Shown here piece after piece: positions 1,778 through 57,200 of a stretch of DNA of 64,000 nt; position 1 is the stretch's first letter, and every line of letters starts with the position of its first letter. A model generated the notes under the pieces. It ran no database searches, was not told where the DNA came from, and saw only the letters and a program-made list of their open reading frames with translations. A program made the position numbers and the translations under genes. The DNA lies in the NCBI GenBank assembly GCA_965248265.1, contig CBDFJF010000002.1:3200001-3264000 (forward strand), read 5' to 3'. Source of the DNA: Candidatus Latescibacterota bacterium. GTDB lineage: Bacteria > Latescibacterota > UBA2968 > UBA8231.

Positions 1778-4700
1778 ATGCTGCGTCTAGTCACCATCAC
1801 GGTTGTCGTCCTAGCACTCGCGGGTATGTGTGGGGCCCAATCCGTCCAGGTTTCACCCTCCGAGCTGGGCCAGGTGCCCTCCTTCTCGGCAGTGCCATAC
1901 TGGCAGCAGTTGGTGATCACCTTCGACCAGGCGGACGTGGCCAGCGACTCCACGGTGACGATCAACATGCCGCTCACGCTGCTGATCTACGACGTCAACG
2001 GTGACGGTTCGGTTCAGGATGACATCCGTTTGATGTACCAACCGGCGGGCGCGGAAACTCCAGGATTCTTCGTGTCCAGTGAATCCGCAAGCGGGCGTGT
2101 CGTCATCGGCAGCATTGCGGAGGCCGCCTTCGGTGGCCGTCTGTACGTCCAGATTCCGATTCTTATTTTCACTCCGCTGCCGGGCTCGATCCTGCGTTAC
2201 GGGGCGATAGAATTTGGCGATCCACGTGAGCGCGATCTGATCGAGGGTCCGTTTTTGACCGTGCTCTCGAACGACGAGTTCGCTCTTCTTGGCTCGATGG
2301 ATATCGCCAAGTTTGCCCCCCTGTTTGCGGCCACCGGCTCCGATACCACCACGTCGACCCTAGGGACCCTCTTTCCCGACGATGCCGGTGAAGTCCTGGC
2401 GGTCCTGCCGGATCTGGTTTTCGATGGCGGCGGCTTGAACTCCAGTGATCTACTGGGGTTTGGCAACGGAGATGACTCCGACGATACAGAATACTCCTTC
2501 CACTTCTCGAATGATGGCTCGCTTAAAGCAGTCGACTCGAGTGTGGCCACGCCTGCTCGGGCCTCGACTGGCGAGGTGTACCGCTTGACGGAGGGAGACG
2601 CCGGCGCAACGGTTCAATTCTTGACCCAGGTACTGGATGCTGGCACCTACTACCTCTACGTGACCAGCAACGTTACTGGTAGTATCCCTCTGGCTCGCAG
2701 TCGAGCCATCAGCGTGCGTCATCAACCTCAAGTGCTGTTGGCTGAACCGAGCCTCGATCTGACTCTCGACACCGGCGATCTGTACGACCTCAGCGGCGAT
2801 CCGAACGGTAACTCGGCACAGGAGGTCACGCTGTCCTACGCCGCGTTGGATCACGACGACGAGGTTTCCGTCCATCTATTCTACAGTGAACAGGCCGACC
2901 TGACGAGCAGTGATGCCAGTGTAGTGGCTGAAGGCCAGGCGCAATTGGCCGGAGCCACAGCCATCACTGAAGAGGCCCTGGTCGAAACAGAGGGCAGTCT
3001 ATCGTGGCACATCTTGGAACCGACGCCAGTGGCAGCTGGAGATTACTGGATCTACACCATGGCCGTGGGGGGCTCCGAGATTGGGCTCAAGCGCAGTGAT
3101 GGCCAGGTCCATGTCAGACACGCTCCATCCTTGAGGCTGGATGCCCTCGATGATGCGGTGCTGAGCGGTGCCAATGCCATCATCACCGGCGGCACTCGTC
3201 CACAGTCCTTCATCACCTTTACATGGGGTCGAGGAGGCAGCGATGGGGATGACGATTTCGACGGCGACGCCGAGATCGCACTGTATTACAGCAATCATGG
3301 CGCCGGTTTGGCCCCACCAGCCGAGAATGTTGAAGAGGAAACCTTTTGGGTACCGGGTGGAGCAGAAGCACTGCTGGCAGACGTTGGCGTCAACACCCAT
3401 TTGATCGTCGCCGGCCTGAACGAAGATCCAGATCAGCGGGAGGATAACCAGTTCGTCTGGGATCTGGCGAATTTGACCGACACCGCTGTACCGGAAGCCG
3501 ATCGCACCTACTACATCTATGGCATCATCTCCGATGGTGATGATGAGCGCCTGGTGCAGATGAATGGTGGTCGTCTCAATGACGCGGCCTCCCGCATCGT
3601 TTTTGAACATCCTCCGACCGTGCGTCCTCTGCAACCGGTCTCCGACATGGACGTCGCGATCGGGCGGAGTGGGCGAGTGAGTTGGCAGGATACCGATCTC
3701 GACACCCAGGCCTGGATAAGGATCATTCTCACCCAAGAGGATCACGGCGAATTTTCCGACTACGGTACCGTCACGTCCGCACCGTCCGCCTACGTGGCCA
3801 ATTCGAGTGATGGACGGGCAAGTCCCGAGGTCGATGTCGAATTCGATCTGGACGAGGACAGCGACACGGACTTCTTCGACGTCGAACCGGATAAGCTACA
3901 ACTCGGTGTCAGTGCGGACGTACCGCTGCCGCCCGGATCCTATCAGGTGTACGTCGCCATTACCGAATCGCAGACGTTTACCGATTCACCGGCATGGCGT
4001 TGCGCCGGGATCATAGAAATTGTCGAAGCGGGGGAAGGGGGCAACCAGGAGGCGGTGTTCAACCTGGCACCCCAACACTTCACACTCGGGACCAACACAC
4101 CACAACTCGTGAACGTCCGGATTGATGACGCCGATGAGTCAGTCGATCTCGTCGTCGTCCATCTCGAGATAGATGGCACCCATTTGTCGGTCGCCGACTT
4201 GGATTCGGAGACAGAAGGGATTCAGCCCTTCGCCGTGTCGCCTGGATTCAGCGCTTCGAACATGGTAATGAACACCCTCACCAATGGAAATGAGGGGGAG
4301 CTCTTTCTCGCCTTCGAGTACTTCGAGGCGACTTCGGCGCGAATCGCCGGGTTGGATGGTGTTACGTCAATAGCCTCCTTCGAGTTGGTCGCTCTGGATA
4401 ATGAGGGTGACGCCGATGTCGAACTGGTAAGCGATCCGCTCATGGATCGCCTGTCGAGGCTCGATCGTGATGGAGTCACCGTTTCCTCAGGCAGTGAATC
4501 AAGCCTGGCGACAGCTCGCATCGTCTCCGGTCGGGCACTGGTTCGGGGCACGCTGCGGCTTGAAGGACGAGACAGCTTGATCGACTCCGTCGACTTCTCC
4601 CTGCGCCCGTGGGCTAGTTACGAGAAACTCGATGACGACGTCTTCAGCGCCGCGAACGACATCGACCCCGTCAAGAGTGGAGTGCAGGTCCAGATTGCCG

Positions 4701-5830
4701 CCGACGGAGTCTTCGAGCTCATGGAGGTGCCGACCGGTCGCCTGGACATCTACGCCCACATGGACGGTTACCTGGATGCCTGGCATTCAGGTTTGGATCT
4801 GCTGCCGGCACAGGTTGTCGAGGACATCCGTCCGGTGACGCCAACCGGGGCTGTCGTTGCCGACGATTCACTGATGCTGGGTGGTGATGTGGCCGGCTAC
4901 ACTGACTTGAGCGGTCGAAGTCTTCCAGACAACGAGGTTACACTGGCCGACTGGGATTTCACCGCCGCCTTGTTCGATCGCACGGCAGCCAGTGTGGGAG
5001 ACAGCGCGAGAGCCGACATCACCGGGGATGGTTTCATCAACGTTAGAGATCTGGCTCTGGTCGGAGCAAACTTCCTGCGCCGAGGACCTCGACCGGTTTA
5101 CAAGGTGGCGCCCCAATCCGAATCATCGCCTCATGCGCTGCTGCGAGTCGAATACAGATCGGGCACGGATGACAACGCTTTTGTGGAGCTGTGGGGGGAT
5201 CGAATATCCGCCGTGGCTGCCTGTCAGTTCGATCTGGCATTCTTACCTGGTGCCTGGAAGATCCTGGAGGTGGTGCCTGGAGCCAGGGGCTCCATGGCGG
5301 TGCACAGGCACAATGCCAATGGTCACAAGGTAGCAGCCGTACTCATGGACGGACATCTGTCAACGGATGTTCCACTGATGAGCTGGCGACTGCAGGCTCT
5401 ACAGGCCGAGCCGAGTCCACCGACACTTGCCGGTGCGCTCTTACTGGATCGCTCCCACCGAGAAATCGTTGCTGAAGTGGTTTCGACGCCAGCCGGGCAG
5501 ACTGAGCCCCAACCCCTCCACTTCGGGCTGAGTCAGAACTTTCCAAACCCGTTCAACCCGGAAACGACCATTGGCTTCACTGTTCCGGCGATGGTGGGGA
5601 GGGTGGCATCCGAGCCGCACGTGCAACTCGAAGTGTATAACTCGGTGGGACAGTTGGTTGCCCAGCTCGTCGACGGAGCGTTCGCGCCCGGGCCGCACAC
5701 CGTGCACTGGGATGGACATGACAGGGACGGTTTGACCGCCGGCAGCGGCGTCTATTTCTATCGTCTGCATATCGTCAGTGATGATGCCGGCAGCCGCACC
5801 CTGGTGCGGCGCATGCTGCTGCTAAGGTGA
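1778..5830 (+). CDS. Large secreted modular protein: repeated Ig-like modules, cohesin-like domain, X-module, dockerin, second cohesin-like domain, C-terminal FlgD-Ig/CTD sorting domain
   Basis: 1350 aa with signal peptide. Dockerin-like 'GGDVAG...DNEVTLADW...ADITGDGFINVRDLALVGANF'; C-terminal 'LSQNFPNPFNPETTIGF...WDGHDRDG..AGSGVYFYRL'. Confidence 0.85.
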   Translation: MLRLVTITVVVLALAGMCGAQSVQVSPSELGQVPSFSAVPYWQQLVITFDQADVASDSTVTINMPLTLLIYDVNGDGSVQDDIRLMYQPAGAETPGFFVSSESASGRVVIGSIAEAAFGGRLYVQIPILIFTPLPGSILRYGAIEFGDPRERDLIEGPFLTVLSNDEFALLGSMDIAKFAPLFAATGSDTTTSTLGTLFPDDAGEVLAVLPDLVFDGGGLNSSDLLGFGNGDDSDDTEYSFHFSNDGSLKAVDSSVATPARASTGEVYRLTEGDAGATVQFLTQVLDAGTYYLYVTSNVTGSIPLARSRAISVRHQPQVLLAEPSLDLTLDTGDLYDLSGDPNGNSAQEVTLSYAALDHDDEVSVHLFYSEQADLTSSDASVVAEGQAQLAGATAITEEALVETEGSLSWHILEPTPVAAGDYWIYTMAVGGSEIGLKRSDGQVHVRHAPSLRLDALDDAVLSGANAIITGGTRPQSFITFTWGRGGSDGDDDFDGDAEIALYYSNHGAGLAPPAENVEEETFWVPGGAEALLADVGVNTHLIVAGLNEDPDQREDNQFVWDLANLTDTAVPEADRTYYIYGIISDGDDERLVQMNGGRLNDAASRIVFEHPPTVRPLQPVSDMDVAIGRSGRVSWQDTDLDTQAWIRIILTQEDHGEFSDYGTVTSAPSAYVANSSDGRASPEVDVEFDLDEDSDTDFFDVEPDKLQLGVSADVPLPPGSYQVYVAITESQTFTDSPAWRCAGIIEIVEAGEGGNQEAVFNLAPQHFTLGTNTPQLVNVRIDDADESVDLVVVHLEIDGTHLSVADLDSETEGIQPFAVSPGFSASNMVMNTLTNGNEGELFLAFEYFEATSARIAGLDGVTSIASFELVALDNEGDADVELVSDPLMDRLSRLDRDGVTVSSGSESSLATARIVSGRALVRGTLRLEGRDSLIDSVDFSLRPWASYEKLDDDVFSAANDIDPVKSGVQVQIAADGVFELMEVPTGRLDIYAHMDGYLDAWHSGLDLLPAQVVEDIRPVTPTGAVVADDSLMLGGDVAGYTDLSGRSLPDNEVTLADWDFTAALFDRTAASVGDSARADITGDGFINVRDLALVGANFLRRGPRPVYKVAPQSESSPHALLRVEYRSGTDDNAFVELWGDRISAVAACQFDLAFLPGAWKILEVVPGARGSMAVHRHNANGHKVAAVLMDGHLSTDVPLMSWRLQALQAEPSPPTLAGALLLDRSHREIVAEVVSTPAGQTEPQPLHFGLSQNFPNPFNPETTIGFTVPAMVGRVASEPHVQLEVYNSVGQLVAQLVDGAFAPGPHTVHWDGHDRDGLTAGSGVYFYRLHIVSDDAGSRTLVRRMLLLR

Positions 5831-5846
5831 GGGAAGGGGGGAGTCG

Positions 5847-8800
5847 ATGATGGGTTTACGCACTGACATGGCGCCTGCAAGCGCAAGAGGATTGATCCTC
5901 ACGGCCGTGATCGCCTTGTTGTCCTTCTCCCCGGCGTTGGTGGATGCCGCACAGATTGATCTGCGTGTCCAGGGATTGCCACCCGGGGCCGATCTCACCC
6001 ACGATATTGAGCTTGGAGATGAACTCGTCGTGGACGTCGTGATCGAAGCAGGTAGCGAGGAAGAGATCACCGGGTTTTCCCTCTTCATTTCCTACGACAA
6101 CGAAGTATTTGCCCTGATGCCGGCAGTGGAAGCCAGCGATCAAGAGACCTTGCAGCCCTTCGAGCCTGGTGGGTACCTCAACGGCGTTCCCTTGTTGAAT
6201 CGCCTCGAGGAAGTGGAGGGGGACACCGAGTCCTTCATCGCTTACGCCGAAGCCTCCGGGGTCTCGCGAGAGGTCGCCACCGGCAGTGGTGTGGCAGCTA
6301 GATTTCGCCTCGAGGTTCTGCGCCGGCCGTTGGGTGATCTCTCCCAGATCGTCGTGGAGGAGCGTGGTCACGATCGGTTTTCCCACTATGTCACCGCCGC
6401 GACCCCAGGAACGGAGAGGCGCTTCGACCAACCAGGAACCCTGTCATTCCGAGTAACCGGATTCCGCGTCAAGTCGCTTCCGGATCAAGTGCTCGTAGAA
6501 GGTGAGGCCTCTTCCGTATTCATCCTGAATGATTTCGTCGACCAGGAGGGAGGACGCATCCTCTGGTCGGCCACCCGACTGAGTGAATTGCCGACGTCGA
6601 TCGACGAAGAGTCCACGCAGGTCACGATCACCCCTCAGATAGGCGGCTTTGGTTCAGGTCCCAATCGCAATGCCAGTCGTCGCATGATCTTTACCGCCTT
6701 CGAGACCGGTGAGGGGCTGACAGCCGCCGACACCATCGACATCGTCGTCAACGCGCGTCCGCAGATCGGTGAAGCCATGCGTGACACCGTCCGCTTTGCC
6801 GAAGACGGCTCGACCACGCGGGACCTCGATGGATTCGTCGCCGATGCCGACGACCTGAACGCGGACCTGTCCTGGACGGCCACGACTTCCGGAAATGTCA
6901 TGGTGTCGATCAACCCGGAGACCAGAGTGGCGACCTTTACGGCCGCGCCCGACTGGTACGGCAATGAAGAGGTGGTCTTTCGGGTCGCCGATGGGGATGC
7001 ACTTGATGACGTGGGCACTACCGTCGTTTCCGTAGCGCCCGTAAACGATCCACCGGTGGCTGGTCGCCTCGAGCCAGTCTACCCGCCCAGCGGTTCATCC
7101 GGGGTGGCCATCCCGTTGTCTGATCTGATCAGCGACCGGGATGATGAGCTAACCGACTTGGAGATCACGCCTGAAGTCGAGGGGTCGGCCACAGCGCGGA
7201 TATCACCAGACGGCACAGCGCTTATAGTCAGTGGGGACGAAGCGGGTCGCAGCGTCATTCGCTTGACGGTCACCGACACCTCGGGTGCCACTGCCCAGAC
7301 TCGACAGGTTGCGGTAGTTCTGGGGCCGAATGAGCAGGTTGCACCGGAGATTCTCAGTCTGCCACAGGTGCAGCTGCGCGCCGGCACATTCACCACCTTG
7401 AGTCTGAACCCATTCGCGCGAGATGATCAGCCCGTGAGCAATCTGATCTGGGCTAGCGTAGCGCCCGACGAGTTGCTGGATACCATCGGCTCAGATAATG
7501 TTTTGCGGGTTGACGCGGACGCCTCGTTCTCGGGGGAGTCGGTCGTCGTGTTGGTGGCGACAGACCAGGCAGGGCTCACCGACACGGCGACGCTGCCCGT
7601 GCAGGTGGCGGGTGAGGGTCAAGACCTTCCACCCCTGATATCGCTACCGGGCAAGATCGGTGTGGTCGGGGAGGACGAATCATCAACTCCGACTGAAGTC
7701 GCGTTGGATCCTCTCGTCATCGACCTCGATGATGTTGACAGCCAGATTCAGTGGGAGGTGTTCACGTCGAGTCCGGGACTCGTCATCAATATTGACGAAG
7801 ATAGAACGCTGATGGTCAGTGCCGGCGCTGATTTTGCTCAGGGCGGATCTGGAATAGGGTCCATCTCGCTGATCGCCCGCAACACCAAGGATCTTGCAGA
7901 TACGGCTGCCGTTCCAGTGATCGTCTCCGTCCCAGGGCAAGAGCCGCAGATGGCACCGTTGCCCGACGTCACCCTGGACAGCCTGGCCGCCGAGGTACGC
8001 GTCGATCTGGATGAGTTCGTCTTTGACGCGGACGACTTCGATTCAGAGGTCTTCATGGTGACGGATCATGATCCGGGCGTCGTCGTCGATGTCGATCCGG
8101 TGACTCACGAAATTACGGTACGTCGCGTGGAGGAGAGCGGACGACCCCTTCCCAGTACGTCCGTGCGAGTTTCCGCCGTTGACACGGATGGTGGCTCCTC
8201 GGTAACCCGCATATTGACTATTCAACTGCCGCCGATCTTCAGCTTGAGTGCCATCCCGGACATTGAATTCTTCGAAGGGGAGGACGCCAGCCTGGATCTT
8301 GACGATCATGTGGCTCAACCCGATCCACCTCCACCGCTGTCCTGGTCCGTCGGTCCGACACAGCATCTTGAAGTCCGTATTGATCCGTTGACGCACCGGG
8401 CATTCATCGAGCCCTCCAATGCCGATTTCGTCGGCAGTGAGGTGTTGACCTTCGACGCCATGGACGAGACTGGACGCACCCGCAGCGGCACGGTCAAAGT
8501 CACCGTCAAAAGCCGCGGCCTGGCCCCCGAGATTCGCGACCTGCCAACGATAGAACTGCAGGCAGGCGGCACTGATCGCAGCATTGATCTGGATCAGTTT
8601 GTCTTCGACGATGATCCGGACGACGCACTTCGGTGGACCTTTACGCAGCCTCCGAGCCTGGAGGTCTTCGTCGATCCGGCCACGAACGAGGTCACGATAA
8701 CGGCGCAGGAGGCCGCGGTCGGGCTCGAGCAGGTGCAATTTGCCGTCCAGGATCCAGCCGGGAACACCGACATCGGCGTGCTCGAGGTTATGGTCGTCAG

Positions 8801-10034
8801 AGGCGGCCTGCCGCCGCAGATCAGCGGCCTGCCGCAGATCACCCTGCTGGCGGGAGCTCCGGAGCAATCGTTGTCACTGGATCTGTACGTGACTGACACG
8901 GACACGCCGGACGATCAAATAGTCTGGGTGGTTCGCAGTGAACCCGGAGTGAACGCCCGCATCCAGGACCGACGCCTGTTCCTCTCGGTTCCAGCAGGGC
9001 AGGAAGGTGGGCGACAGCTCACGCTGACGGCCACCGACCCTCAGGGCAACGAGGCTGAGGCTGTCCTCCAGCTTACGATCGAGTTGGATGCTCAAGCACC
9101 TCGATTGAGCCTGGAGATCAAACGCAATCCTGTGGTAGCGGATCTGATAGAGGTCATCGTGACTTCGGACGAATCCTTACCGCAGGCGCCTGGGGTGCGG
9201 ATCAATGGCGCTGAGGTCGAGGTCTTGACGCTCGCCGATGACAGCCTCTTTGTGGCGGCTACGACGATATCTCCCTCAGGGGAGTTGCAGTTGCTCGAAG
9301 TGCTGGCCGAAGGCGCTGACCGAGCCGGAAATGTGAGTACCCGCGAATTGACGGTGGCTTTACGGTGGATGATCGACGAAGGAGGGACGGTACCGTACAC
9401 GGATGGCGTGGCGATCGCCAACGTTCCCGATGCCGCTGCCGGACCGAGACGCCTGGCCATCCTCTACCGCCTGGGAGAAGAGGAGACCCCCCCGGAGAGT
9501 GCGGGTGAGCCGGTCTACGCGATCGATCTGGACAGTGGCGAGCCAGTCATGGATCCCTACACCATCAACCTGTTCCAAGGCGAACGGTCGGGTCAGGGGC
9601 GCGGCCTGCTGCGTTGGGAGCCCTCGAGGCAGGTGTGGGAGGAAGTTCCGACGATCGTGGATGAGGCTGCCGGATGGCTGACGGCTTCCATTCGCGAATC
9701 AGGCCTTTATCGCCCAGGGGCGGTCGCCAGCACCAACACGCGGCCAACCCAGAAGCTGGCCAATCATCCCAATCCGTTTCCTTCTGCCGGGAGCGACAAC
9801 ACGCAGATCGAGTACGAGATGTCCGTCGCCGGACCAGTCCGACTGGAAGTCTTCAACGTTCTCGGGCAGCGGGTGCGCCTGCTGGTCGATGAGTCGTTCC
9901 AGGATGTCGGCGTGTGGACGGTAGTTTGGAACGGAAGAGACGACGCCGGGAGAACGCTCGGCAGTGGCGTCTATTTCTATGAACTCGCGGAACAGCAGGG
10001 AGTCCAGTGTCGTTCGCTGGTGTTGTTCCGTTAG
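5847..10034 (+). CDS. Large secreted protein: N-terminal cohesin-like domain, about 9 cadherin-like/tandem Ig repeats, C-terminal FlgD-Ig/CTD domain
   Basis: 1395 aa with signal peptide. Cohesin-like 'GDELVVDVVI...ITGFSLFISYD...TGSGVAARFRL'; repeats such as 'LDGFVADADD..LSW', 'VAPVNDPP' and 'LDQFVFDDDPDD.LRW'; C-terminal 'NHPNPF...WNGRDDAGRTLGSGVYFYEL'. Confidence 0.85.
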   Translation: MMGLRTDMAPASARGLILTAVIALLSFSPALVDAAQIDLRVQGLPPGADLTHDIELGDELVVDVVIEAGSEEEITGFSLFISYDNEVFALMPAVEASDQETLQPFEPGGYLNGVPLLNRLEEVEGDTESFIAYAEASGVSREVATGSGVAARFRLEVLRRPLGDLSQIVVEERGHDRFSHYVTAATPGTERRFDQPGTLSFRVTGFRVKSLPDQVLVEGEASSVFILNDFVDQEGGRILWSATRLSELPTSIDEESTQVTITPQIGGFGSGPNRNASRRMIFTAFETGEGLTAADTIDIVVNARPQIGEAMRDTVRFAEDGSTTRDLDGFVADADDLNADLSWTATTSGNVMVSINPETRVATFTAAPDWYGNEEVVFRVADGDALDDVGTTVVSVAPVNDPPVAGRLEPVYPPSGSSGVAIPLSDLISDRDDELTDLEITPEVEGSATARISPDGTALIVSGDEAGRSVIRLTVTDTSGATAQTRQVAVVLGPNEQVAPEILSLPQVQLRAGTFTTLSLNPFARDDQPVSNLIWASVAPDELLDTIGSDNVLRVDADASFSGESVVVLVATDQAGLTDTATLPVQVAGEGQDLPPLISLPGKIGVVGEDESSTPTEVALDPLVIDLDDVDSQIQWEVFTSSPGLVINIDEDRTLMVSAGADFAQGGSGIGSISLIARNTKDLADTAAVPVIVSVPGQEPQMAPLPDVTLDSLAAEVRVDLDEFVFDADDFDSEVFMVTDHDPGVVVDVDPVTHEITVRRVEESGRPLPSTSVRVSAVDTDGGSSVTRILTIQLPPIFSLSAIPDIEFFEGEDASLDLDDHVAQPDPPPPLSWSVGPTQHLEVRIDPLTHRAFIEPSNADFVGSEVLTFDAMDETGRTRSGTVKVTVKSRGLAPEIRDLPTIELQAGGTDRSIDLDQFVFDDDPDDALRWTFTQPPSLEVFVDPATNEVTITAQEAAVGLEQVQFAVQDPAGNTDIGVLEVMVVRGGLPPQISGLPQITLLAGAPEQSLSLDLYVTDTDTPDDQIVWVVRSEPGVNARIQDRRLFLSVPAGQEGGRQLTLTATDPQGNEAEAVLQLTIELDAQAPRLSLEIKRNPVVADLIEVIVTSDESLPQAPGVRINGAEVEVLTLADDSLFVAATTISPSGELQLLEVLAEGADRAGNVSTRELTVALRWMIDEGGTVPYTDGVAIANVPDAAAGPRRLAILYRLGEEETPPESAGEPVYAIDLDSGEPVMDPYTINLFQGERSGQGRGLLRWEPSRQVWEEVPTIVDEAAGWLTASIRESGLYRPGAVASTNTRPTQKLANHPNPFPSAGSDNTQIEYEMSVAGPVRLEVFNVLGQRVRLLVDESFQDVGVWTVVWNGRDDAGRTLGSGVYFYELAEQQGVQCRSLVLFR

Positions 10035-10045
10035 GTGATTTGACC

Positions 10046-13000
10046 ATGAATACCGAATCGAAATTCGAGCCGGGAACGGCCAGACGCGTAGCCGGACAGT
10101 GTCTGCTGGTGTTGCTATGGCTGGCGGGGTGGGCCGCGGCGGGGCAGAATACCTGGACGGCCACCGGCAGTCTGGGCTCCGACATCAACGCCATTGTACC
10201 GCATCCGCAGGATGCGGGTACCCTGTACGCGGTTGGTGAAGACGGTGTTTTCCGGTCCATCGACGGCGGTGAGTGGGTCTCCATCAGCGAAGGCCTTGCC
10301 GCCTCGACGGTATTGAGCCTGGCTATCGACGGGCAAGATGCCAACCGTCTGTACGCTGGCTTGAATGCCGGTCTCTACACCAGCGGTGATGGCGGTCAAA
10401 CATGGACCCTCGTCGACGCCGTGGGGCCGGGTGTGCTGTCCTTGGCGATCGGACCAGAGGGGTTGGTGTACGCAGGCACCCTGGGGCGCGGCATCTACGT
10501 CAGCGAGAATGCCGGCGTTGATTGGCGCATCCCGGTTGAGCTCTCATCCTCGTTGATCTTCGATCTCACGGCATCACCGGTTGACGGTACGGCCTACGCC
10601 GCAACCGCGTCCGGTCTGTACCGTACCCAGGATGGTGGTTTGAGCTGGAATCTTGTGGGATTTGATCTGGCTGAGTTGAGCATTCGTGACATCGATCTGT
10701 CGAAGGAGGATGTCGAGACTCTGTTCGTTGCGACCTTTGGAGGGGGTGTTTTCAAAAGCCTGGATTTCGGTGTTCACTGGACGGCCCTCAATCAAGGGCT
10801 GGATGATCTGTCCGTTCGCTCCATCGAGGTGGCTCGCCGGGACCGGCTGCTGTACGCGGCGACGTCGACGGGGGGGTTCTACCGTTCGTCGGACGCCGGC
10901 CAATCCTGGAACCCGGTCAACGACGGACTATCCTCGCTCACGGCACGCACGACCTACCACGCTGACGATCCGGATCAAGACCGGCTATTCGGGGCAGGAC
11001 CGGCACCGGGCGTGTTCGAGATCACCTTCGCTCCAGAGCCAGACATTCAGGTAGATTCGGCGATCCTCGATTTTGGCGAAATCTCGGTGGGTGTCGTGCA
11101 ACAGCTAGCCGTATCGATTTCGAATTCCGGGGACGCAGATCTACAGATCTCGAGCTTGAGTACTATCAGAAACGGACCGTTCGTGCCACAGGCGGATGCA
11201 GTCCCGTTCGTGATTCCGGCAGGGGGAAGCATAGACCTGGCGATCACCTTTCAACCCCAGGAGGGCGGTGACGAGGCTGACACGCTGACCATTCGCAGCG
11301 ACGATCTGGACAGTCCCGAACTGGAGGTTGCCCTGCGGGGAATCGGCGTCCGCGCTGATTTGCGAGTAGGGGGATCGGGGACGGGGATGGATTTTGGTGA
11401 GGTGCGGGTGGGCGATACCGCAGACACGACCATCGTCATCAACAATATTGGCAACGCAGCTGTCGTCCTCTCGGGCGCCTCGGTCGATGACGACACCTTC
11501 CAGGTGCTCTCATTCGAGGTCGTGGAGGTTCAGGCGCTTGGCAGTGTCTTTGTCCGACTTCGTTACTCTCCGGTGCAACCGCAGGCCAATGCCACCACCC
11601 TCGTAATCTTGACTACCGAGCCGAGCCAGCCGCGTTTCGAGTTACCCCTGCTAGGCACCGGCACCTCTCCCGCGATCGAAGTGCTGCCCGATGAACTGCT
11701 ATTCGGCAACGTCAACCTCGGTCGAGAGACCCGCTTGCTGTTGTCGGTAGCCAACAACGGTAACGCGGACCTGCAGGTGACAGGCCTCGAGATCGACGGA
11801 GATGCCTTCAGGCTGGAGCGCTCGGTCTCAGAGGCGAATCCGATCGTGGTGGCGCCAGGAGGAGCACAGCTTCTGGACGTCGTATTCCTGCCGTTGATCA
11901 GTGGCGCCCATCGGGGCACCCTGACCGTCGTCAGCGATGCACCCGAATCCCCCATCGAGATCTCTTTGTTGGGAACGGGCGGTGCCCTCGACCTGACGCC
12001 AAAGAATCCTGTGGAGGCCGGGACGGATCCCGTGGACTTGATCGTCCTGGATGTGGATGCGGATGGAGATCACGACCTGACCACCATCGACGAAACCTCC
12101 ATCCATGTTCTGCTCAATGATGGAACAGGGGCGTTTCCGCAAGTCGATCGCGTTGCCTACCCGGCTGCGGACTCGCCGTATTCCGAGTGGGATGCCCCGG
12201 TCGCGATAGCCGCAGCGCCCGTGTTCGGCCAGTCTCCTGATTTGATCGTCGCCGACCAGGCGGGACAGGTCGTTTCCATCGTCGCCAACGACGCTCAGGG
12301 TGGCTTCAGCCTGGAACGACAAGACGTGTTCATCGGCCATGCCATAACCGCCGTGATGCCGCTGGACGTTGACGCGGACGGCGACATCGACATAGCCGTT
12401 GCCGATGGGGACAGCCCCAGTATCACGATTCTGCTCAACAATGATGAGGCTGGATTCAACGCCCGCACCTCCATAGCCGTGGAGGACGGCCCGAGAGCCC
12501 TGACGGCCGCCAACCTGAACGACGACGGTCACATCGATCTCGTCGTCGCCAATGAAGACGCCGGAACGGTGTCCATATTACTGTCAGATCGCCAGGGCGG
12601 CTTTTCCGTGCCAAGGCAAGACATCCTCGTCGGCATCGCCCCCATTGCTCTGGGTGTCGTCGACTACGATGCGGACGGAGACAACGACATATTCAGTGCC
12701 AATGCAGGCTCACGCGACGTCTCCATCGTCGAGAGCGACGGGGATGGGGTTTTCGCCCTGGGTTCGCGCATCTCCACGGTGATGCAGCCAACGGGGTTGT
12801 CCTTGTCTGATTTAACCCGTGACGTCTTCGCTGATCTGGTGGTCTCCGGGGATGGTGATCCATTCCTGAGCTTCTTCGAGAATGATGCCGGAGCTGCGTT
12901 CACGGCAAAAGACGTGGTGCCGGCCAGTGCAGCCGCACTGCGAGTCGTCATCGCTGACATGAATGGTGATGGCAACAACGACATCGTCTCTCTCAGCCAA

Positions 13001-15055
13001 GCGACGGTCCGCGTTTTCATCAACGAAGACACCCGCGTCATGGATCCCCCGCGTCCGCCAACGCAGGTCACGGCAGACGATGTTGCCCGTGATTTGGGTC
13101 GCCAGATTGAGATAACCTGGGACGCTCCCGAGTTGGACGAGCAGATCGGCCGGACTACTGAATACCTGATTTTTCGCGCAGAGGACGAGGATGGTCCTTT
13201 CGTCGAGTTGGGTCGTCGGTCCGCTGGTGAGAGAGACTTCATCGATGACGCGGCGACCTTGTCTCAGACCTTCTACTATTTTGTCCAGGCTGGTAACGCC
13301 GCCCTTCAGTCGGGCAACTCAGATACCGTATCCGCCGCATCCAGGCCGGCGCCGTTCTTTGAGCTCGAACTGATCAACGAACCCCGCATCAGCGTCGGTG
13401 ACACTCTCAAGGTGCGGGCTTTGCTGACTCCGGCGGTGCATGACGTTGCCGGGATCTCCCTCTATCTGACCTACGATGACAGCGCCCTGACCCTCATCGA
13501 CGCTGACTCCACCTCCGCAGCCCTGGTGCCGTTCAGATTGGACACCACCCTGACGGCCGGCAGTCTCGTGGAGAACCGGCTTCATCCCAGCACGAGCGAC
13601 AAGATCGATATCTCGTTGACCTCACTGCAGATTTCAAACGGCGTACAACCCGTATCGCTCGGCGAGATTTGGTTCCGTACGTTGAAAGACAGGACGACAC
13701 CGCTGACCATCGACGATGAGGACGCCCTCAACCGTCGCAGCGCCGTGGTCGAGCAGGTGACGGGAAACTGGATTCTGCCTTTCATCCCGAGCCGTCAGAC
13801 TCAGGTTTCCATCAGAGATTTCCAGGTCAGCGGCAGCCTTGAACTGGAGGGCCGGGCGGCCGATAACCTGGGATTGCAGGCGACGATCACCCTCGTCGAC
13901 TCCGCCGGTGGCAGGCTGGAGTCACCGCTGAACGACGAAGATGCCGAGCGGCCTCTGATTCAGTCCACCCTCACCGTCGACGGACAGTTCGAACTCAACC
14001 AGATTCCGCGTGGCAGCTATCGGATTTTTGCCAAGACGCCGAGTCATCTACAGGGGCAGGTCGTAGGGGACACAGTCACCATCGGTGACTCCCTGCGCAC
14101 GATGCTGAGGTTTGCCTGGATGCGCTCGGACTCGACGGTCACGTCCATTCTCCCCGCGGGTGATGCCAACGACGACAATCGGGTCAATCTGGCGGATTAC
14201 GGGCTGCTGGTAAGGCATTTCGACTCCAATTCGTCTGACATCAGCGTTTGGGATGAAGCGCAGATGGTGGACTTCAATGGCGACAATTTCGTCAACGCCA
14301 CCGACTTCTTCCTGCTGGCGCAAAACTTCGGTGAGATCGGCATGGGTTTTTCCGTCACAGCGGCCAAGCGTTCAGCCAGGGGTTGGGTCTCCTTCGACGA
14401 CGATCGGGAGGCGATCGCAGTCGGTGAGGTCGGCGCCATTCGAGGATACTCGCTGAAAGTCCTCATCGGCGGTTCGCCCCGACATGCCGGGCAGCAGGTC
14501 ATCGATGCGCTTGGAGGGAGCCTGTTCTCCGGCGATGATTCGATGGCACATGTGTGGCCGGTGGATGGAGGATCTGCCATCATCGTGGCCGTGGCCATGC
14601 GAGATCCAACCAGGACGATCGACGCTACGGAAGGAGTTCTTGCGCGCTTCAACGAAGCGATATCAGGAGGCGAAGCACCGAGTCTCCGGATCCTGGATGC
14701 GGAAGTTCTGCTTTCGGATTGGAGTGTGGCCAACCCGGAGATCCGGCAATCACGGGCGCTGCCGACTTCGACCTTCCTGCTCCAGAATTACCCCAATCCG
14801 TTCAATCCCTCGACCGTCATTCCGTTTGAGCTGGCCGCGGGAGACGGGTCGGCGAGGGTCACGCTGGAGGTATTCAATTTGCTCGGGCAACGGATTCGGA
14901 CCCTCGTTGATGCGAGGGTGCGTCCGGGGGCGCATGAAGTCGTCTGGGATGGCAGGGACCGTGAAGGACGTGCCGCCGCTTCCGGCATCTACATCTATCG
15001 TCTTTCGATCGGGGGGAGTCAATTGCTCTCCCGCCGCCTGCTGCTAGTACACTGA
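10046..15055 (+). CDS. Large secreted protein: BNR/sortilin-like propeller, 3 ASH (choice-of-anchor D-type) Ig domains, FG-GAP propeller, FN3, cohesin-like domain, X-module, dockerin, FlgD-Ig/CTD
   Basis: Likely start ATG 10046. Asp-box 'S.DGG.TW' repeats; 'LDFGEI.VG...ISNSGDADL' x3; 'DVDADGD.D' FG-GAP repeats; dockerin 'AGDANDDNRVNLADY...VDFNGDNFVNATDFFLLAQNFG'; C-terminal 'QNYPNPFNPST...ASGIYIYRL'. Confidence 0.87.
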   Translation: MNTESKFEPGTARRVAGQCLLVLLWLAGWAAAGQNTWTATGSLGSDINAIVPHPQDAGTLYAVGEDGVFRSIDGGEWVSISEGLAASTVLSLAIDGQDANRLYAGLNAGLYTSGDGGQTWTLVDAVGPGVLSLAIGPEGLVYAGTLGRGIYVSENAGVDWRIPVELSSSLIFDLTASPVDGTAYAATASGLYRTQDGGLSWNLVGFDLAELSIRDIDLSKEDVETLFVATFGGGVFKSLDFGVHWTALNQGLDDLSVRSIEVARRDRLLYAATSTGGFYRSSDAGQSWNPVNDGLSSLTARTTYHADDPDQDRLFGAGPAPGVFEITFAPEPDIQVDSAILDFGEISVGVVQQLAVSISNSGDADLQISSLSTIRNGPFVPQADAVPFVIPAGGSIDLAITFQPQEGGDEADTLTIRSDDLDSPELEVALRGIGVRADLRVGGSGTGMDFGEVRVGDTADTTIVINNIGNAAVVLSGASVDDDTFQVLSFEVVEVQALGSVFVRLRYSPVQPQANATTLVILTTEPSQPRFELPLLGTGTSPAIEVLPDELLFGNVNLGRETRLLLSVANNGNADLQVTGLEIDGDAFRLERSVSEANPIVVAPGGAQLLDVVFLPLISGAHRGTLTVVSDAPESPIEISLLGTGGALDLTPKNPVEAGTDPVDLIVLDVDADGDHDLTTIDETSIHVLLNDGTGAFPQVDRVAYPAADSPYSEWDAPVAIAAAPVFGQSPDLIVADQAGQVVSIVANDAQGGFSLERQDVFIGHAITAVMPLDVDADGDIDIAVADGDSPSITILLNNDEAGFNARTSIAVEDGPRALTAANLNDDGHIDLVVANEDAGTVSILLSDRQGGFSVPRQDILVGIAPIALGVVDYDADGDNDIFSANAGSRDVSIVESDGDGVFALGSRISTVMQPTGLSLSDLTRDVFADLVVSGDGDPFLSFFENDAGAAFTAKDVVPASAAALRVVIADMNGDGNNDIVSLSQATVRVFINEDTRVMDPPRPPTQVTADDVARDLGRQIEITWDAPELDEQIGRTTEYLIFRAEDEDGPFVELGRRSAGERDFIDDAATLSQTFYYFVQAGNAALQSGNSDTVSAASRPAPFFELELINEPRISVGDTLKVRALLTPAVHDVAGISLYLTYDDSALTLIDADSTSAALVPFRLDTTLTAGSLVENRLHPSTSDKIDISLTSLQISNGVQPVSLGEIWFRTLKDRTTPLTIDDEDALNRRSAVVEQVTGNWILPFIPSRQTQVSIRDFQVSGSLELEGRAADNLGLQATITLVDSAGGRLESPLNDEDAERPLIQSTLTVDGQFELNQIPRGSYRIFAKTPSHLQGQVVGDTVTIGDSLRTMLRFAWMRSDSTVTSILPAGDANDDNRVNLADYGLLVRHFDSNSSDISVWDEAQMVDFNGDNFVNATDFFLLAQNFGEIGMGFSVTAAKRSARGWVSFDDDREAIAVGEVGAIRGYSLKVLIGGSPRHAGQQVIDALGGSLFSGDDSMAHVWPVDGGSAIIVAVAMRDPTRTIDATEGVLARFNEAISGGEAPSLRILDAEVLLSDWSVANPEIRQSRALPTSTFLLQNYPNPFNPSTVIPFELAAGDGSARVTLEVFNLLGQRIRTLVDARVRPGAHEVVWDGRDREGRAAASGIYIYRLSIGGSQLLSRRLLLVH

Positions 15056-53298: not shown

Positions 53299-54195
53299 CT
53301 ATAATGCACAGAGCCGGCCTTCCTTCAGGGCGCGGCGCATTGCCTGCAACAGTCGACGGCTGTCCTTCATTTCCGAGGCATCCGTCTGCAGCCCTACTCG
53401 CTTGTCTGCGATGAAGTCGGTGATCCATTCCACCTCTGACCCGGTCGGGTTGGTGTCAATGACATGACGCTGGTCGCCACGGGCGACGACGATGTCGCCA
53501 TCCTCGCACCGGCTCGAAATCGTCCCTCCAGATCCCAGCAACCAGGTGTCAGCAAGCGTGCCACCCCGGCCAGGCGCCACGCACAATTGCGCGTTGGCGC
53601 GGTTGTGCATCGCCACCGTCACGGTTACGTGCAAGTGTGCTCGCCCACTTCTGGTGGCGCCGACGACCGTCCTCACGGCGGTTGATTGCAGCAACCAGGT
53701 GGCGCTGGCGAGCAGTTCCCACATCGACCACCAGGCGGCGTCCATGGAAGTTCCGCCACCGGCGACGCAGCGTGCATAGACGGGTTCACCAAAGGCATCA
53801 GAAGCCCTTAGTTGATTCATTCTCTTCAGTCTCGGCTCATGGCGTTCGCGCCCACCCCAACGAATGCGAGCGCCATGTTGTTCCGCCAGTTGCTGGAGTT
53901 GCGCGTTTTGCGTCGCAGTGGCTGAGAGCGGACCGGCGCACAGAACGTGGACGCCGGCACTGACGATGCGGCGGATGGACTCGAAAGCTGCCTGCTTCGG
54001 GCTCAGCAAGCATACCGTACCCGCGTCCGTCGATTGCAGGGCATGTTCAAGGTCAGGGAAGTGCTCGGCCAGGCTCGAGTCGATGCCGACGACACCGACT
54101 ACCGGCATTGCCCCACAAACAGCGTCAATGGCCGGCTTGTCGTTGCGGTCGCCGGCGAGGATGAGACGGCTGACCTTGGCCTTCCGTTCACTCAT
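53299..54195 (-). CDS. Divergent Gfo/Idh/MocA-like protein
   Basis: Weak family pattern ('AGVHVLCAGPL' in place of GKHVLCEKP; 'FGEP'; 'WLLGSGG'); overlaps the upstream Gfo gene by 4 bp. Confidence 0.6.
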   Translation of the reverse strand: MSERKAKVSRLILAGDRNDKPAIDAVCGAMPVVGVVGIDSSLAEHFPDLEHALQSTDAGTVCLLSPKQAAFESIRRIVSAGVHVLCAGPLSATATQNAQLQQLAEQHGARIRWGGRERHEPRLKRMNQLRASDAFGEPVYARCVAGGGTSMDAAWWSMWELLASATWLLQSTAVRTVVGATRSGRAHLHVTVTVAMHNRANAQLCVAPGRGGTLADTWLLGSGGTISSRCEDGDIVVARGDQRHVIDTNPTGSEVEWITDFIADKRVGLQTDASEMKDSRRLLQAMRRALKEGRLCAL

Positions 54196-55328
54196 GACTC
54201 TATCAAATCGACGGGCGCCTGCTCCACGATCGAACGATAGCCGGCGAGGAGGGTTTGCATGTTGTCGCGAGCCAGTTGAACGGTGTAAGCGGGCTCAACG
54301 TCTTCGTCCAGCGCTCGCACGAAGTCATCCAGACCACGGGAGAGCCCGGCGGTATCGCCGGAGACAGGGACGGAAACGGATGGCGGGCCGCTGTGCCATT
54401 GCATCGGGTCGTCGGTTGCGGGATGATAGTCCGACTCGACGATTTCAGCGCGCAGGAAGGTGTCGACTCCAGGACGCTTGGCCTCCACGGCTGCAGTGGC
54501 TTGCGTGCCCATCAACCAGGCCCTGGCTACTCCGCCTGAGGGATGAGTAGCGACTCCATTGCGACCAGCACACAGGGTGCAGACCCGGCCGGCGTCATCG
54601 ACGAGCGTCAGGGTCGCGAAGTCCTCGGCGCCATGGTTGGCATGTTCTGGGAAGAAATAAGCGTCGGCCTGGGCGTACACCTGCACGGTCGCCCCGCACA
54701 AGCGCTGAATCAAGCCCACACCGTAGGCTCCTACGGTGAGCAACTCGCGTTTGATGTCGTCGAACTTCCAGCGGCCTGCCGGCAGGAAGGGGGTGGCGCG
54801 CTGATCCTCCGAAATCGGCCGCGGCCAACCCTTGGCGAAGAGCAGGTCCACGTGTACACCAAGCAGATCGTCTCCAAGCTGGCCGCTGCGCAGGGCGAAT
54901 TCAGCTCGGTTGACGAGTTCGCCGTAGGCATAGCTGGGCACAATCGCCCTGACGCCAGCACGCTCAACAGCCTTAACGGCAGTGTCGCACTCATCGATTG
55001 AGGCGCCCAGGAACTTGTCGATCCACAGATGCTTTCCCGCTGCGGCGGCGCGACAGATCAGGTCAGTTCGGCGCTCGATCTCATGGCCGATACTGACGGC
55101 ATCGACGCCATCCAGTTCGAGTGCGCGATCGATTCCGGTGACATAGGGGACGCCCAATTGTTCGGCCCATCGTCGGTTGGTCTGGTCAAGGTGGCCATCG
55201 ATATCCGCTTCGTCGGCAACGGCGACGATACGAATTTGCGGGTGATCCTGGAAAAGGGGGACAAAACTGCTCTGATGACTGTGACGACTGAAACTCGCCA
55301 GCAGTACACCGTAGGTCCGAGTGCTCAT
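54192..55328 (-). CDS. Gfo/Idh/MocA family oxidoreductase
   Basis: 'IRIVAVAD', 'VDAVSI', 'AAAGKHLWIDKF', 'AEDFATLTL'. Confidence 0.85.
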   Translation of the reverse strand: MSTRTYGVLLASFSRHSHQSSFVPLFQDHPQIRIVAVADEADIDGHLDQTNRRWAEQLGVPYVTGIDRALELDGVDAVSIGHEIERRTDLICRAAAAGKHLWIDKFLGASIDECDTAVKAVERAGVRAIVPSYAYGELVNRAEFALRSGQLGDDLLGVHVDLLFAKGWPRPISEDQRATPFLPAGRWKFDDIKRELLTVGAYGVGLIQRLCGATVQVYAQADAYFFPEHANHGAEDFATLTLVDDAGRVCTLCAGRNGVATHPSGGVARAWLMGTQATAAVEAKRPGVDTFLRAEIVESDYHPATDDPMQWHSGPPSVSVPVSGDTAGLSRGLDDFVRALDEDVEPAYTVQLARDNMQTLLAGYRSIVEQAPVDLIES

Positions 55329-55373
55329 GTAGGGAGGTAGATGGGAAAGGGTACTATCAGATGGTTACTCGTC

Positions 55374-55910
55374 TTACCACCTGGTGAGGTTGCCCATGAT
55401 CTTGTTCAGGTCTTTCTGCAGCTCGCTTTTTTCATCCTGCAGATCGCGGATGCGATCTTCGCAGTGTTGCACCGACTGCGCCATTTCTCCCAGCCGTTTC
55501 TCTAGCTCCGACGAGCGTTCCGACAGGGTCGCGTTCTGTTCGGTCGTCTCTGCCCGCTGGCGCTGCTTTTCGTCTAACTCCTGGCGCAGCGTGTCGATGC
55601 GGATTTCCGTTTCCCGCACGCGCCGTTCGGTTTCTGACTTGAGCTCCTCGCGTTCGCGTACCAGTTGCTCTTGCAGCTGCTTCTGCCGCTCCTGGAGCGC
55701 CTTCTCTTTGGCAGCGAGCTCATCCCGCAACTTCTGCGACTGCGCTTCAAGTTGTTGCGATTGACTGGTTTGCGTTTCAGCCCGCTTTTCCGCTTCCTGC
55801 CTTTGCGAAACCTCCATGTCGAGCATCTGGTGCATGCGCGCGATTTCATCACGCTGGCGAGTCAGCTCAGCCTTGAGTCTGGAGGCCGTCAAAAACGAGA
55901 GAATTCCCAT
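55374..55910 (-). CDS. Coiled-coil protein with amphipathic termini, downstream partner of the MamK-like actin
   Basis: 178 aa, almost entirely E/Q/R/K/L heptads with no Pro; N-terminus MGILSFL, C-terminus LNKIMGNLTRW. Confidence 0.8.
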   Translation of the reverse strand: MGILSFLTASRLKAELTRQRDEIARMHQMLDMEVSQRQEAEKRAETQTSQSQQLEAQSQKLRDELAAKEKALQERQKQLQEQLVREREELKSETERRVRETEIRIDTLRQELDEKQRQRAETTEQNATLSERSSELEKRLGEMAQSVQHCEDRIRDLQDEKSELQKDLNKIMGNLTRW

Positions 55911-55963
55911 CTTATCTACTCACGCAATCCTTGAAGTGTTGTCCGCTCAAACCCGAAACCAAC

Positions 55964-57046
55964 CTACTCGTCGGCGTATCGACGCCACTCAGATTCCGGC
56001 ATGTCCTGCGCAAGCTTCAGTGCCCCGAGGGCTCCGGCGTAAATGGGATCATCAACGATGGTGACCCTGCAAGGCCCGAATTCGGACAGATTGGAGCGAA
56101 CTTCTTCACCCAGGCCTCGGATCTGGCTTCCACCCCCGGCAAGCAGGATGTTCTGTCTCAACTCGTTCTGGAATTCCGGGTCGAAGCCGACGATCAGTTC
56201 CTTGGCACTCTCTATGAGATCGGGTAGCACACTCTCGCAGGCTTCCCGCAACTCGTTCGTCAGGTCATAGGTGCTGGGCTTTCCGTCCACCTGGAAATCC
56301 ACCGCAATGACTTCCTTGTTCGACGAGACGAAGGCGTACTGTTCCTTGATTCGGCGGGCCATCTCCAGCGTGACCGGTGAATCGTTGACCTTTTCCTGCA
56401 GAAGCATATGGAACCGTGCATCTACGTAGTTGCCTGCCTTCAACAGCGTTCGCTGGTCGTCCTCGCCGGGTATGGTACCGTGCATGCAGCACAGGTCCAG
56501 GGTCCCGGCACCTATGTCGATGATGAGGGCGTTGTTGAATAGCTCGAGACCATACGCCACCAGAAAGGGCTCCGAGGCTACCATGGACACCTCTACCATG
56601 CTCCTGACCGCTTCCGTCAACGCCGCGCGGTCTTCCGCCGTGGCGCGTGCCGGCGATCCAATGACGGCACGGATTTCCTGACCCGGATTGGCTTCGGCCA
56701 TATCAACTATGTATGAGACCAGGTGCTGGATCGCCTCTGCCTCGCGATCAGACTCCGGCGCAGCTGCCTCCTCATCCTCGCTCGGCCGGTGTCTGAAGAC
56801 ACCGTGCTCAAGAGGCCAGATCATATCGACGGCCATCCTGTTCTCCAGACACTCGTCGCCAATGACGACCTGTTTTTGGAGAAACTTGTAGGAGATAAGG
56901 TCCTTCGGCCAACCCACTACGCTGGTAACCGTGCGACGAACACCAGTGCTCGTCACTATAAAACTCTGCGACGTCCCCAAATCGAGACCGATGTACAGGA
57001 TGCCATCATCCTGCGGCGTGGTCGCAGTCCGACCTTCTACGCCCAT
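55964..57046 (-). CDS. MamK-like bacterial actin (MreB/MamK superfamily ATPase)
   Basis: Phosphate-1 'IGLDLGTSQS'; 'SVVGWPKD'; 'SEPFLVAYG'; phosphate-2 'IDIGAGTLDLC'; 'GTIPGEDDQRTLLKAGNYVD'; 'IKEQYAFV'; adenosine 'LAGGGSQIRGL'. RBS AGGAG upstream. Confidence 0.88.
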   Translation of the reverse strand: MGVEGRTATTPQDDGILYIGLDLGTSQSFIVTSTGVRRTVTSVVGWPKDLISYKFLQKQVVIGDECLENRMAVDMIWPLEHGVFRHRPSEDEEAAAPESDREAEAIQHLVSYIVDMAEANPGQEIRAVIGSPARATAEDRAALTEAVRSMVEVSMVASEPFLVAYGLELFNNALIIDIGAGTLDLCCMHGTIPGEDDQRTLLKAGNYVDARFHMLLQEKVNDSPVTLEMARRIKEQYAFVSSNKEVIAVDFQVDGKPSTYDLTNELREACESVLPDLIESAKELIVGFDPEFQNELRQNILLAGGGSQIRGLGEEVRSNLSEFGPCRVTIVDDPIYAGALGALKLAQDMPESEWRRYADE

Positions 57047-57120
57047 TTGGCTATTGCTCCTGGAAATTCGAAGGGAGGGATTGGATGGTGCTAAAATGAC
57101 CTAATTCACTATTTCACAAC

Positions 57121-57166
57121 CAAATAACGAGCAAATAACGGGACCTACCCGATAGTTCAAATAACG
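57121..57166. repeat. Three 9-bp direct repeats (CAAATAACG) upstream of the actin gene
   Basis: Exact copies at 57121-57129, 57132-57140 and 57158-57166 in an AT-rich gap; minus-strand TTGACA at 57184-57189. Confidence 0.85.
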
Positions 57167-57200
57167 GGGCGGACCCTGCGAATTGTCAAGCTCTTTTCAG

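Follow-up and report, generated by a model that had tools for sequence, protein, structure and literature searches.

A conserved operon of a MamK-type actin and a coiled-coil protein in Latescibacterota: a candidate filament-and-adaptor pair outside magnetosomes

In ParMRC, the filament is coupled to DNA through an adaptor whose gene follows that of the actin. Other partners are described for MamK, the actin of magnetotactic bacteria. In Magnetospirillum, MamJ links magnetosomes to MamK, as stated in passages of PMC10653835. In Desulfovibrio magneticus RS-1, MamK works with the coiled-coil proteins Mad20, Mad23, Mad25 and Mad26, which are encoded nearby, and passages of PMC12748827 report two-hybrid interactions among MamK and the Mad proteins. 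Related actins are also found in non-magnetotactic bacteria. Saltatorellin is a MamK-like actin that occurs beside an ordinary MreB and formed filaments in E. coli and M. gryphiswaldense, according to portions of 10.1101/817700. BeeR of Verrucomicrobiota (8r2n) is described in parts of PMC11929497 as a MamK-related actin of unknown function. Here, we analyze a gene pair in a 64,000-nucleotide stretch (the window) of Candidatus Latescibacterota bacterium, assembly GCA_965248265.1, contig CBDFJF010000002.1, positions 3,200,001 to 3,264,000. It encodes a MamK-type actin and a coiled-coil protein, referred to as the partner. An earlier annotation made from the sequence alone (the original prediction) had proposed that the pair positions a cargo other than magnetosomes. 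It had placed the two open reading frames (ORFs) correctly: the ORF list contains both coordinates, the 53-bp gap and the partner ends MGILSFL... and ...LNKIMGNLTRW (Table 1).

The actin and its partner are a real, conserved and dispensable two-gene module. The relatives that carry the pair are metagenome-assembled genomes (MAGs), mostly labelled Latescibacterota and in some cases Gemmatimonadota. In a survey of 168 genomes of the phylum, the actin model matched 30, of which 18, including the window genome, belong to its GTDB family (f1). The partner profile matched 20 genomes, all in f1. These are the 18 actin-bearing genomes, in all of which the predicted pair thus co-occurs, together with G011, where the actin is partial on a fragmented contig, and G159, which holds a relic of the pair. 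The partner ORF stands directly after the actin in the f1 loci with downstream DNA (9 of 9 and 5 of 5), and conversely, searching with the partner retrieved 17 loci, all with the actin in front of it; these three locus sets overlap in species. About ten genera share the pair as a conserved unit. Since it recurs in many genomes, the pairing goes far beyond chance.

The two genes also come and go together. In genomes without the pair, the upstream genes of the window abut F2, the gene downstream of the pair: QueE and PCD genes do so in G015, and the gene for an NMT1 binding protein in G001 and G007. The pair is a clean two-gene insertion or deletion at a conserved position in the chromosome. G159, which shares its genus with genomes that have an intact pair, has kept the promoter region (92% identity over 73 bp), behind which lies a relic of ~360 bp with ~35 actin codons and pieces of the partner gene. 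Strict co-occurrence, the synteny of pair-less genomes and this joint relic indicate that both genes are gained, kept and lost together.

The actin belongs to the MamK type. NCBIfam NF040964 (MamK), a subfamily model with a curated cut-off of 400 bits for the whole-protein score, matches it with 419.6 bits (E 7.7e-126) over profile positions 1-331 of 335. The margin over the cut-off is small, and many MAG proteins score 370-426 bits. The score on the BeeR model is far below its cut-off (202.3 against 530 bits), as are those on the MreB models PRK13927 (58.4 against 293 bits) and TIGR00904 (46.5 against 365.75 bits). The best solved matches are the M. magneticum MamK structures 5ljw, 5jyg and 5ljv, at 304 bits (E 9e-90) over residues 15-359, compared with 133 bits for BeeR 8r2n and 44 bits for MreB. 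About 44% of residues are identical to solved MamK (~148 positions, counted by hand in the alignment). The MamK-like motifs on which the original prediction relied (SVVGxPKD, SEPFxVxYG, DIGAGTxDxC, GTxPGxxDQxTLxKAGNYVD and AGGGSxIRGL) are all matched in the residue alignment to this protein. Furthermore, the nucleotide-binding motifs D22-G24-T25, D177-G179-A180-G181 and G304-G306 are invariant in the alignments and aligned to solved MamK. Besides this single MamK-type gene, the genome encodes a separate 339-aa MreB-like protein at C2:3416623-3417498. Because of the model and PDB scores, the motif matches and the separate MreB-like gene, the actin is assigned to the MamK type and not to MreB, as had been proposed. 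It presumably forms filaments.

The actin shares with MamK of magnetotactic bacteria its subfamily, nearly half of its residues and all nucleotide-binding motifs. It differs from solved MamK by an 11-residue acidic insert at about residues 86-96. It also differs from magnetotactic MamK in lying outside the canonical clade, in having a different partner and in having no mam genes found nearby or in the genome. Saltatorellin comes from a different phylum, and the available portions of its report mention no partner gene. BeeR is far more distant by both scores and forms a clade of its own.

The second protein had been described as a pure coiled coil, and structure prediction agrees. AlphaFold2, with 33 family members, gave one unbroken helix over residues 2-177 with a mean predicted local distance difference test (pLDDT) score of 94.1. 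The predicted rod is ~26 nm long. Its three conserved blocks (Table 1) are separated by variable rod; the columns of the N-terminal block are invariant or nearly so across the 33 sequences. Among 23 partners with both ends intact, 15 have 178 aa and the others have 149, 171, 189, 215, 236 and 327. Both ends had been called amphipathic. The C-terminus bears this out, as its last 11 residues are a strongly amphipathic helix (hydrophobic moment 0.69), but the first eight residues are only hydrophobic (moment 0.25).

The partner family is small, with 40 proteins among 5.8 billion searched, and its members are either without a name or automatically named 'chromosome segregation ATPase'. No curated family covers the partner in Pfam or NCBIfam, which, like the PDB, give coiled-coil noise only. 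Searched against the PDB (56 matches) and Pfam, the profile of the partner family met apolipoprotein, myosin and other generic coiled coils, all below cut-offs. Look-alikes in the ESM Atlas were generic coiled-coil clusters only, with recognition below the usual level. No DNA-binding domain was recognized in Pfam, NCBIfam or family-profile searches. Membership of the partner in the crescentin or intermediate-filament families was rejected, as Rod_CreS scored 20.7 bits against a gathering score of 100 and Filament was below threshold. PspA/IM30, suggested by a resemblance of the first residues, was also rejected: it is not among the Pfam matches shown for the window protein, PspA_IM30 is absent from the families listed for the 33 members (25 of 152, E <=1), and solved PspA or Vipp1 is not among the 56 PDB matches. 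A search for partner fusions found a single fused form, P0145 (488 aa), in which a signal peptide and six LysM repeats are joined to the coiled-coil family at the common EIAR motif. Represented by one sequence, on a contig of 2 kb, it is probably an assembly chimera; no fusion of the partner with the actin was found.

The operon appears to have a conserved sigma-70-type promoter of its own. In 14 aligned upstream regions, from the window and 13 relatives, CTTGACA is invariant, and a TTATTT-like box follows ~17-18 nt past it in the relatives. Further on lies a conserved leader box, a possible operator or RNA element. The 5' end of the transcript is predicted at about 57140-57155. In three marine RNA libraries, contigs from relatives align to both genes with 85-97% identity. 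Two such contigs end at 57139 and 57119, and one of 618 nt, ~90% identical, spans the actin/partner junction (55667-56275); gaps in their coverage, such as 55300-55666, carry no weight. The window also has 19-nt upstream direct repeats, which were considered as a centromere or iteron array and rejected as a private duplication of the -10 box. Within 260 bases upstream, no 8-mer is repeated in 10 of the 13 relatives, and the repeats of L016, L018 and L026 are unrelated motifs. Since the relatives never repeat the window's box, its repeats are not a conserved array.

Table 1. Features of the actin/partner operon (window coordinates) and of a decayed copy in a relative
Feature	Position	Strand	Basis or remark
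MamK-type actin-like ATPase, 360 aa	55964..57046	minus	ORF list and profile searches
Coiled-coil partner, 178 aa, single predicted helix	55374..55910	minus	ORF list and AlphaFold2
Spacer between actin and partner genes, 53 bp	55911..55963	no strand	ORF list
Partner conserved N-terminal block, residues 1-41, MGIxxFLTxSRLKxELTRQRDEIARLHQ...	55788..55910	minus	33-sequence alignment
Partner conserved central block, residues ~105-131, TLRQELDEKQRQR..TEQNAxLAEK	55518..55598	minus	33-sequence alignment
Partner conserved C-terminal amphipathic block, residues 164-178, L..DLxKIMGNLTRW	55377..55421	minus	33-sequence alignment
-35 box TTGACA of the putative operon promoter	57184..57189	minus	CTTGACA invariant in 14 aligned upstream regions
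-10-like box GTTATTTG, 18 nt past the -35 box	57158..57165	minus	TTATTT/TTACAT-like box in relatives
Two extra GTTATTTG copies, direct repeats D1/D9	57121..57139	minus	Local duplication private to the window genome
Conserved leader box TGTGAAATAGTGAATTAGG (TGTGAAATAGAGCTTTAGG-like), past the promoter	57100..57118	minus	Recognizable in most of 14 upstream regions
Decayed pair relic	L142 3351-3713 (G159:C12)		Between NMT1 gene and F2

Magnetosome genes had been reported missing from the 64-kb window, and none of the 43 other window ORFs or the three flanking ORFs scanned matches a mam-type family. The same holds for the genome (7.32 Mb in 2 contigs, 92.28% complete), where no MamI, MamP, MamQ, MamM or magnetochrome match exceeded its cut-off. 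The best MamP match has 26.5 bits against a cut-off of 300 and covers the PDZ part only. MamI gave no match, nor did it in any control genome, and the same is true of the magnetochrome domain (MCR). MamQ/LemA had no match at E 0.001. Neither MamM nor any CDF transporter was matched, in a search that found one in 13 of 14 control genomes. The MamP, MamM and MamQ models were validated on true clusters from a metagenome scan. In L131, the genes after mamK encode a MamP-like protein that contains a magnetochrome domain (218 bits) and MamM (413 bits, cut-off 350), and L140 has a LemA/MamQ-type gene. In trees, the actin falls outside the canonical MamK clade (P0174, P0216, P0203) and outside a 6-row clade from loci that bear mamP or mamM. 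By clade and by core genes it is thus not a magnetosome MamK in the strict sense, and it is very probably not part of a magnetosome system. A magnetosome cluster has reportedly been found in Latescibacteria.

The pair resembles MamK and the Mad proteins of RS-1 in that a MamK-type actin has coiled-coil proteins encoded nearby. However, the Mad proteins act on magnetosome chains and are encoded inside the magnetosome cluster, as far as passages of PMC12748827 describe. Between the partner and coiled-coil ORFs adjacent to mamK in two magnetosome-type metagenome loci, hhalign detected no homology (probabilities of 1% and 0.2%); Mad20-26 themselves were not compared. Four magnetosome-type loci (L094, L096, L100, L116) contain mamK, a second actin (Pfam Volactin, 275 bits) that is possibly Mad28-like, and a coiled-coil ORF of 338-343 aa.

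The neighbors of other MamK-type actins put the pair in context. An exhaustive search of the wider family gave 917 representatives at E 0.001 and 144 at 1e-30. Trees were built with LG+G4 (83 rows) and with LG+C20 and posterior mean site frequencies (PMSF; 74 rows), both by quick searches and rooted on the MreB of the genome. The actins linked to the coiled coil form one clade (Shimodaira-Hasegawa-like approximate likelihood ratio test, SH-aLRT, 99). Its sister clade (SH-aLRT 99, joined at 96 and 91 in the trees) consists of f2-f4 actins that are 55-60% identical to the window actin. In 11 of 12 of these loci, the slot downstream of the actin holds a ParB_N plus HTH_ParB protein of ~204 aa; the twelfth is cut by a contig end. 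Pfam confirmed the ParB domains in 5 of 5 tested. This ParB in the same slot, which the original prediction had missed, is the most informative context of the pair. The ParB-type proteins are found in L035-L046 (G026-G107, f2-f4) and also in L064, and share the conserved C-terminal tail ...RENDPPIExLExxIDRVRxGxAPxI. The actin with the short ParB looks like a chromosomal actin-ParB hybrid, a partition-like pair.

Canonical MamK is a separate clade, in which P0174 scores 508 bits on the MamK model and 463 bits on solved MamK, and BeeR-like proteins are another separate clade in both trees. Among metagenome loci, the best 80 of 424 relatives were examined, 78 of them with a full actin ORF. A gene for an Amidase_3 peptidoglycan amidase stands immediately upstream of the actin in 29 of the 78. 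Mam-type neighbors occur in 8 and three minor recurrent upstream families in 5, and 36 have no recurrent neighbor. The amidase-linked actins (L068-L082 and others) form a separate clade with ~45% identity to the window actin. The gene of their N-acetylmuramoyl-L-alanine amidase (Amidase_3) often overlaps the actin start, which suggests a cell-wall-linked role. The amidase, coiled-coil and ParB labels each mark one clade at support 99; of the 7 mam-linked rows, 6 fall together in a further clade at support 100. On the tree, the labels need 7 changes, compared with a mean of 23 after shuffling. Partner type tracks actin clade, and these clade-specific partners are the most valuable result of the comparison.

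Other forms of MamK-type actins were also seen. Many proteins positive on the MamK model (P0165-P0194, 523-1232 aa) have long N-terminal extensions, in which a conserved helical module (...KKDRFREWTKSLGE... or ...EKxKFEEWAxYFG...) precedes low-complexity linkers that are acidic or rich in proline and contain no Pfam domain. P0203 is an FtsZ-MamK fusion. Near an actin of the next-closest clade, L066 encodes a 421-aa fusion of a ParA/MinD-type ATPase with a response-regulator receiver (3415-4677). This ORF family occurs in 8 of the 80 metagenome loci, in some as a receiver only, without the ATPase part.

How might such a pair work? We favor the following explanation, at a probability of roughly one half. 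This dispensable chromosomal operon would encode a MamK-type ATPase and a lineage-specific rod that serves as the dedicated partner of its filament, most likely as an adaptor or tether. One conserved block of the rod would hold the actin filament, and another would hold membrane or cargo, for which the C-terminal amphipathic helix is a candidate. The filament would thereby position or anchor something other than magnetosomes. An adaptor or tether fits best because the ends of the rod are conserved, its middle varies in length and it is strictly co-inherited with one actin clade. The adaptor logic comes from the sister clade, where the same downstream slot holds a ParB-type protein, and the mechanism is drawn by analogy with the ParMRC adaptor, MamJ and the RS-1 Mad proteins.

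Several observations weigh against this explanation. The amphipathic helix at the C-terminus might just as well bind a protein, and the hydrophobic N-terminus (moment 0.25) has too few residues to cross a membrane. The neighbors of the pair are background synteny, with no linked cargo gene. Nothing points to microcompartments, gas vesicles or granules, the cargoes named in the original prediction, although no test aimed at these was made. The coiled-coil-linked and ParB-linked actins are fixed differently at 28 sites, which lie dispersed, with the highest density at residues 60-85 and 242-267, and mark no obvious single docking site. Only model scores and one PDB comparison anchor the canonical MamK clade. 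The RNA-library contigs, being those of relatives, are weak evidence and cannot prove transcription or a single transcript. Furthermore, the pair is patchy, being found in 17 of the 75 other f1 genomes. Together with the relic in G159, this makes it dispensable and not a core function of the cell. A complex prediction for the actin with the full-length partner scored 0.00 in both runs, with a mark of 0.32 and without controls, and counts neither for nor against contact.

A broader view is tentative, and we consider it possible without favoring it. MamK-type actins would be modular cytomotive filaments whose cargo is set by a clade-specific adjacent partner. The mam and mad products would direct them to magnetosomes, a short ParB to DNA and a peptidoglycan amidase to the cell wall, and the present clade would have a private coiled-coil rod as its partner. 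Marine Latescibacterota-like bacteria would then possess a cytoskeletal system not described before, the pair, whose filaments are tethered to the membrane or to some other structure. If this is true, the magnetosome role is one specialization of MamK-type actins among several.

The conserved ends of the partner can also be read differently. They are its most conserved parts, as a head-to-tail overlap would predict, so that the rod might bind along the filament and bundle it in the manner of tropomyosin, or form a crescentin-like scaffold of its own. Its length of ~26 nm is near five subunit repeats of a MamK strand, if an assumed value is taken for the repeat. Weak matches below threshold to Tropomyosin (8 of 33 members), Filament (13 of 33) and Rod_CreS (10 of 33) point the same way. 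However, these matches are far below their cut-offs, that of Rod_CreS by nearly 80 bits, which is typical coiled-coil noise. Besides, the other rods differ from 178 residues by -29, -7, +11, +37, +58 and +149, with no common quantum of an actin repeat. We therefore regard a side-binding stabilizer or structural cytoskeleton as unlikely, though worth keeping in mind.

The ParB of the sister clade raises another explanation, namely a ParMRC-like machine for segregating the chromosome or other DNA, in which the coiled coil took over from ParB the connection to the nucleoid, either direct or via another protein. The order of an actin gene and a small adaptor gene is that of ParMRC and other type II partition systems, and the N-terminal block of the partner is rich in invariant Arg and Gln (R11, R18, Q19, R20, R25). 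However, the partner has no recognizable DNA-binding domain, one ordinary ParB is kept elsewhere in the genome, and the locus lies in chromosomal housekeeping DNA and not on a plasmid. No conserved repeat array or palindrome was found upstream that could correspond to centromere repeats, the repeats of the window being the private duplication described above. The pair thus falls outside ParMRC as defined, and a role in DNA segregation seems distinctly improbable to us.

It is less plausible still that the two genes are co-transcribed and co-inherited without their products touching, the coiled coil acting, for example, on a third component or regulating another process. Operon partners need not bind each other. 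However, the two genes are strictly present together and are lost together, and the partner family is found only beside the coiled-coil-linked actin clade, all of which speaks for a physical connection. Finally, the original prediction's alternative of an orphan mamK whose magnetosome system lies elsewhere in the genome is very unlikely: although the family model is named MamK, the actin exceeds its cut-off and a magnetosome cluster is reported from Latescibacteria, the models that recognize true clusters at 218-413 bits give no match above cut-off in this genome of about 92% completeness, no CDF or LemA homologue was found, the actin lies outside both magnetosome-linked clades and the pair is conserved as a unit across genera.

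The original prediction had presented the whole module as a candidate undescribed one. This stands for the coiled-coil partner and for the pair. It does not stand for the actin, because stand-alone MamK-like actins (saltatorellin, BeeR) are in print and NCBI already annotates relatives of the actin as 'MamK family actin-like protein'. Titles and abstracts of open-access papers and preprints yielded no description of the actin/coiled-coil pair, or of a MamK-type actin with ParB or an amidase. MamK is usually read as a sign of magnetotaxis. Its gene has served as a marker for magnetotactic bacteria, as parts of 10.1101/682252 indicate. Since actins that pass the model occur in genomes without magnetosome genes, the annotation 'MamK' is unsafe as evidence of magnetosomes. 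Compact two-gene systems of an actin with a coiled coil, an actin with ParB or an amidase with an actin can be tested in E. coli. They offer a way to learn how bacterial actins couple to different cargoes and to trace the origin of the magnetosome cytoskeleton.

The window is chromosomal DNA of an ordinary kind, encoding DnaB, DapF, TrpAB, ribosomal protein S1, CoaBC, peptidases and others. Upstream of the pair are genes for an ABC transporter (NMT1-type binding protein, permease and ATPase), followed by QueE and pterin genes. Downstream are two Gfo/Idh/MocA-like genes and one of the pyruvate/indolepyruvate-ferredoxin-oxidoreductase type. These transport and metabolic flanks are unrelated to the pair, as predicted, and represent background synteny. 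F2 stands beside the pair in 11 of 15 loci at first count. However, 10 of 13 f1 relatives that lack the actin have F2 (59-62% identity), and 2 of 11 with the actin lack it. By this distribution and the pair-less synteny, the two Gfo/Idh/MocA-like genes were rejected as members of the module. They occupy 53299-55328 on the minus strand with a 4-bp overlap. Both products have low Pfam scores (30 and 34 bits) and, by eye, no clear N-terminal GxGxxG glycine loop (YGVLLASFSRHSHQ..., RLILAGDRND...), and they may be non-catalytic. At 1778-15055 on the plus strand, the window has three very large ORFs of 1350, 1395 and 1682 aa with Ig-like, ASH/HYDIN-like, FG-GAP, dockerin and FlgD-Ig domains; their products are presumably surface proteins.

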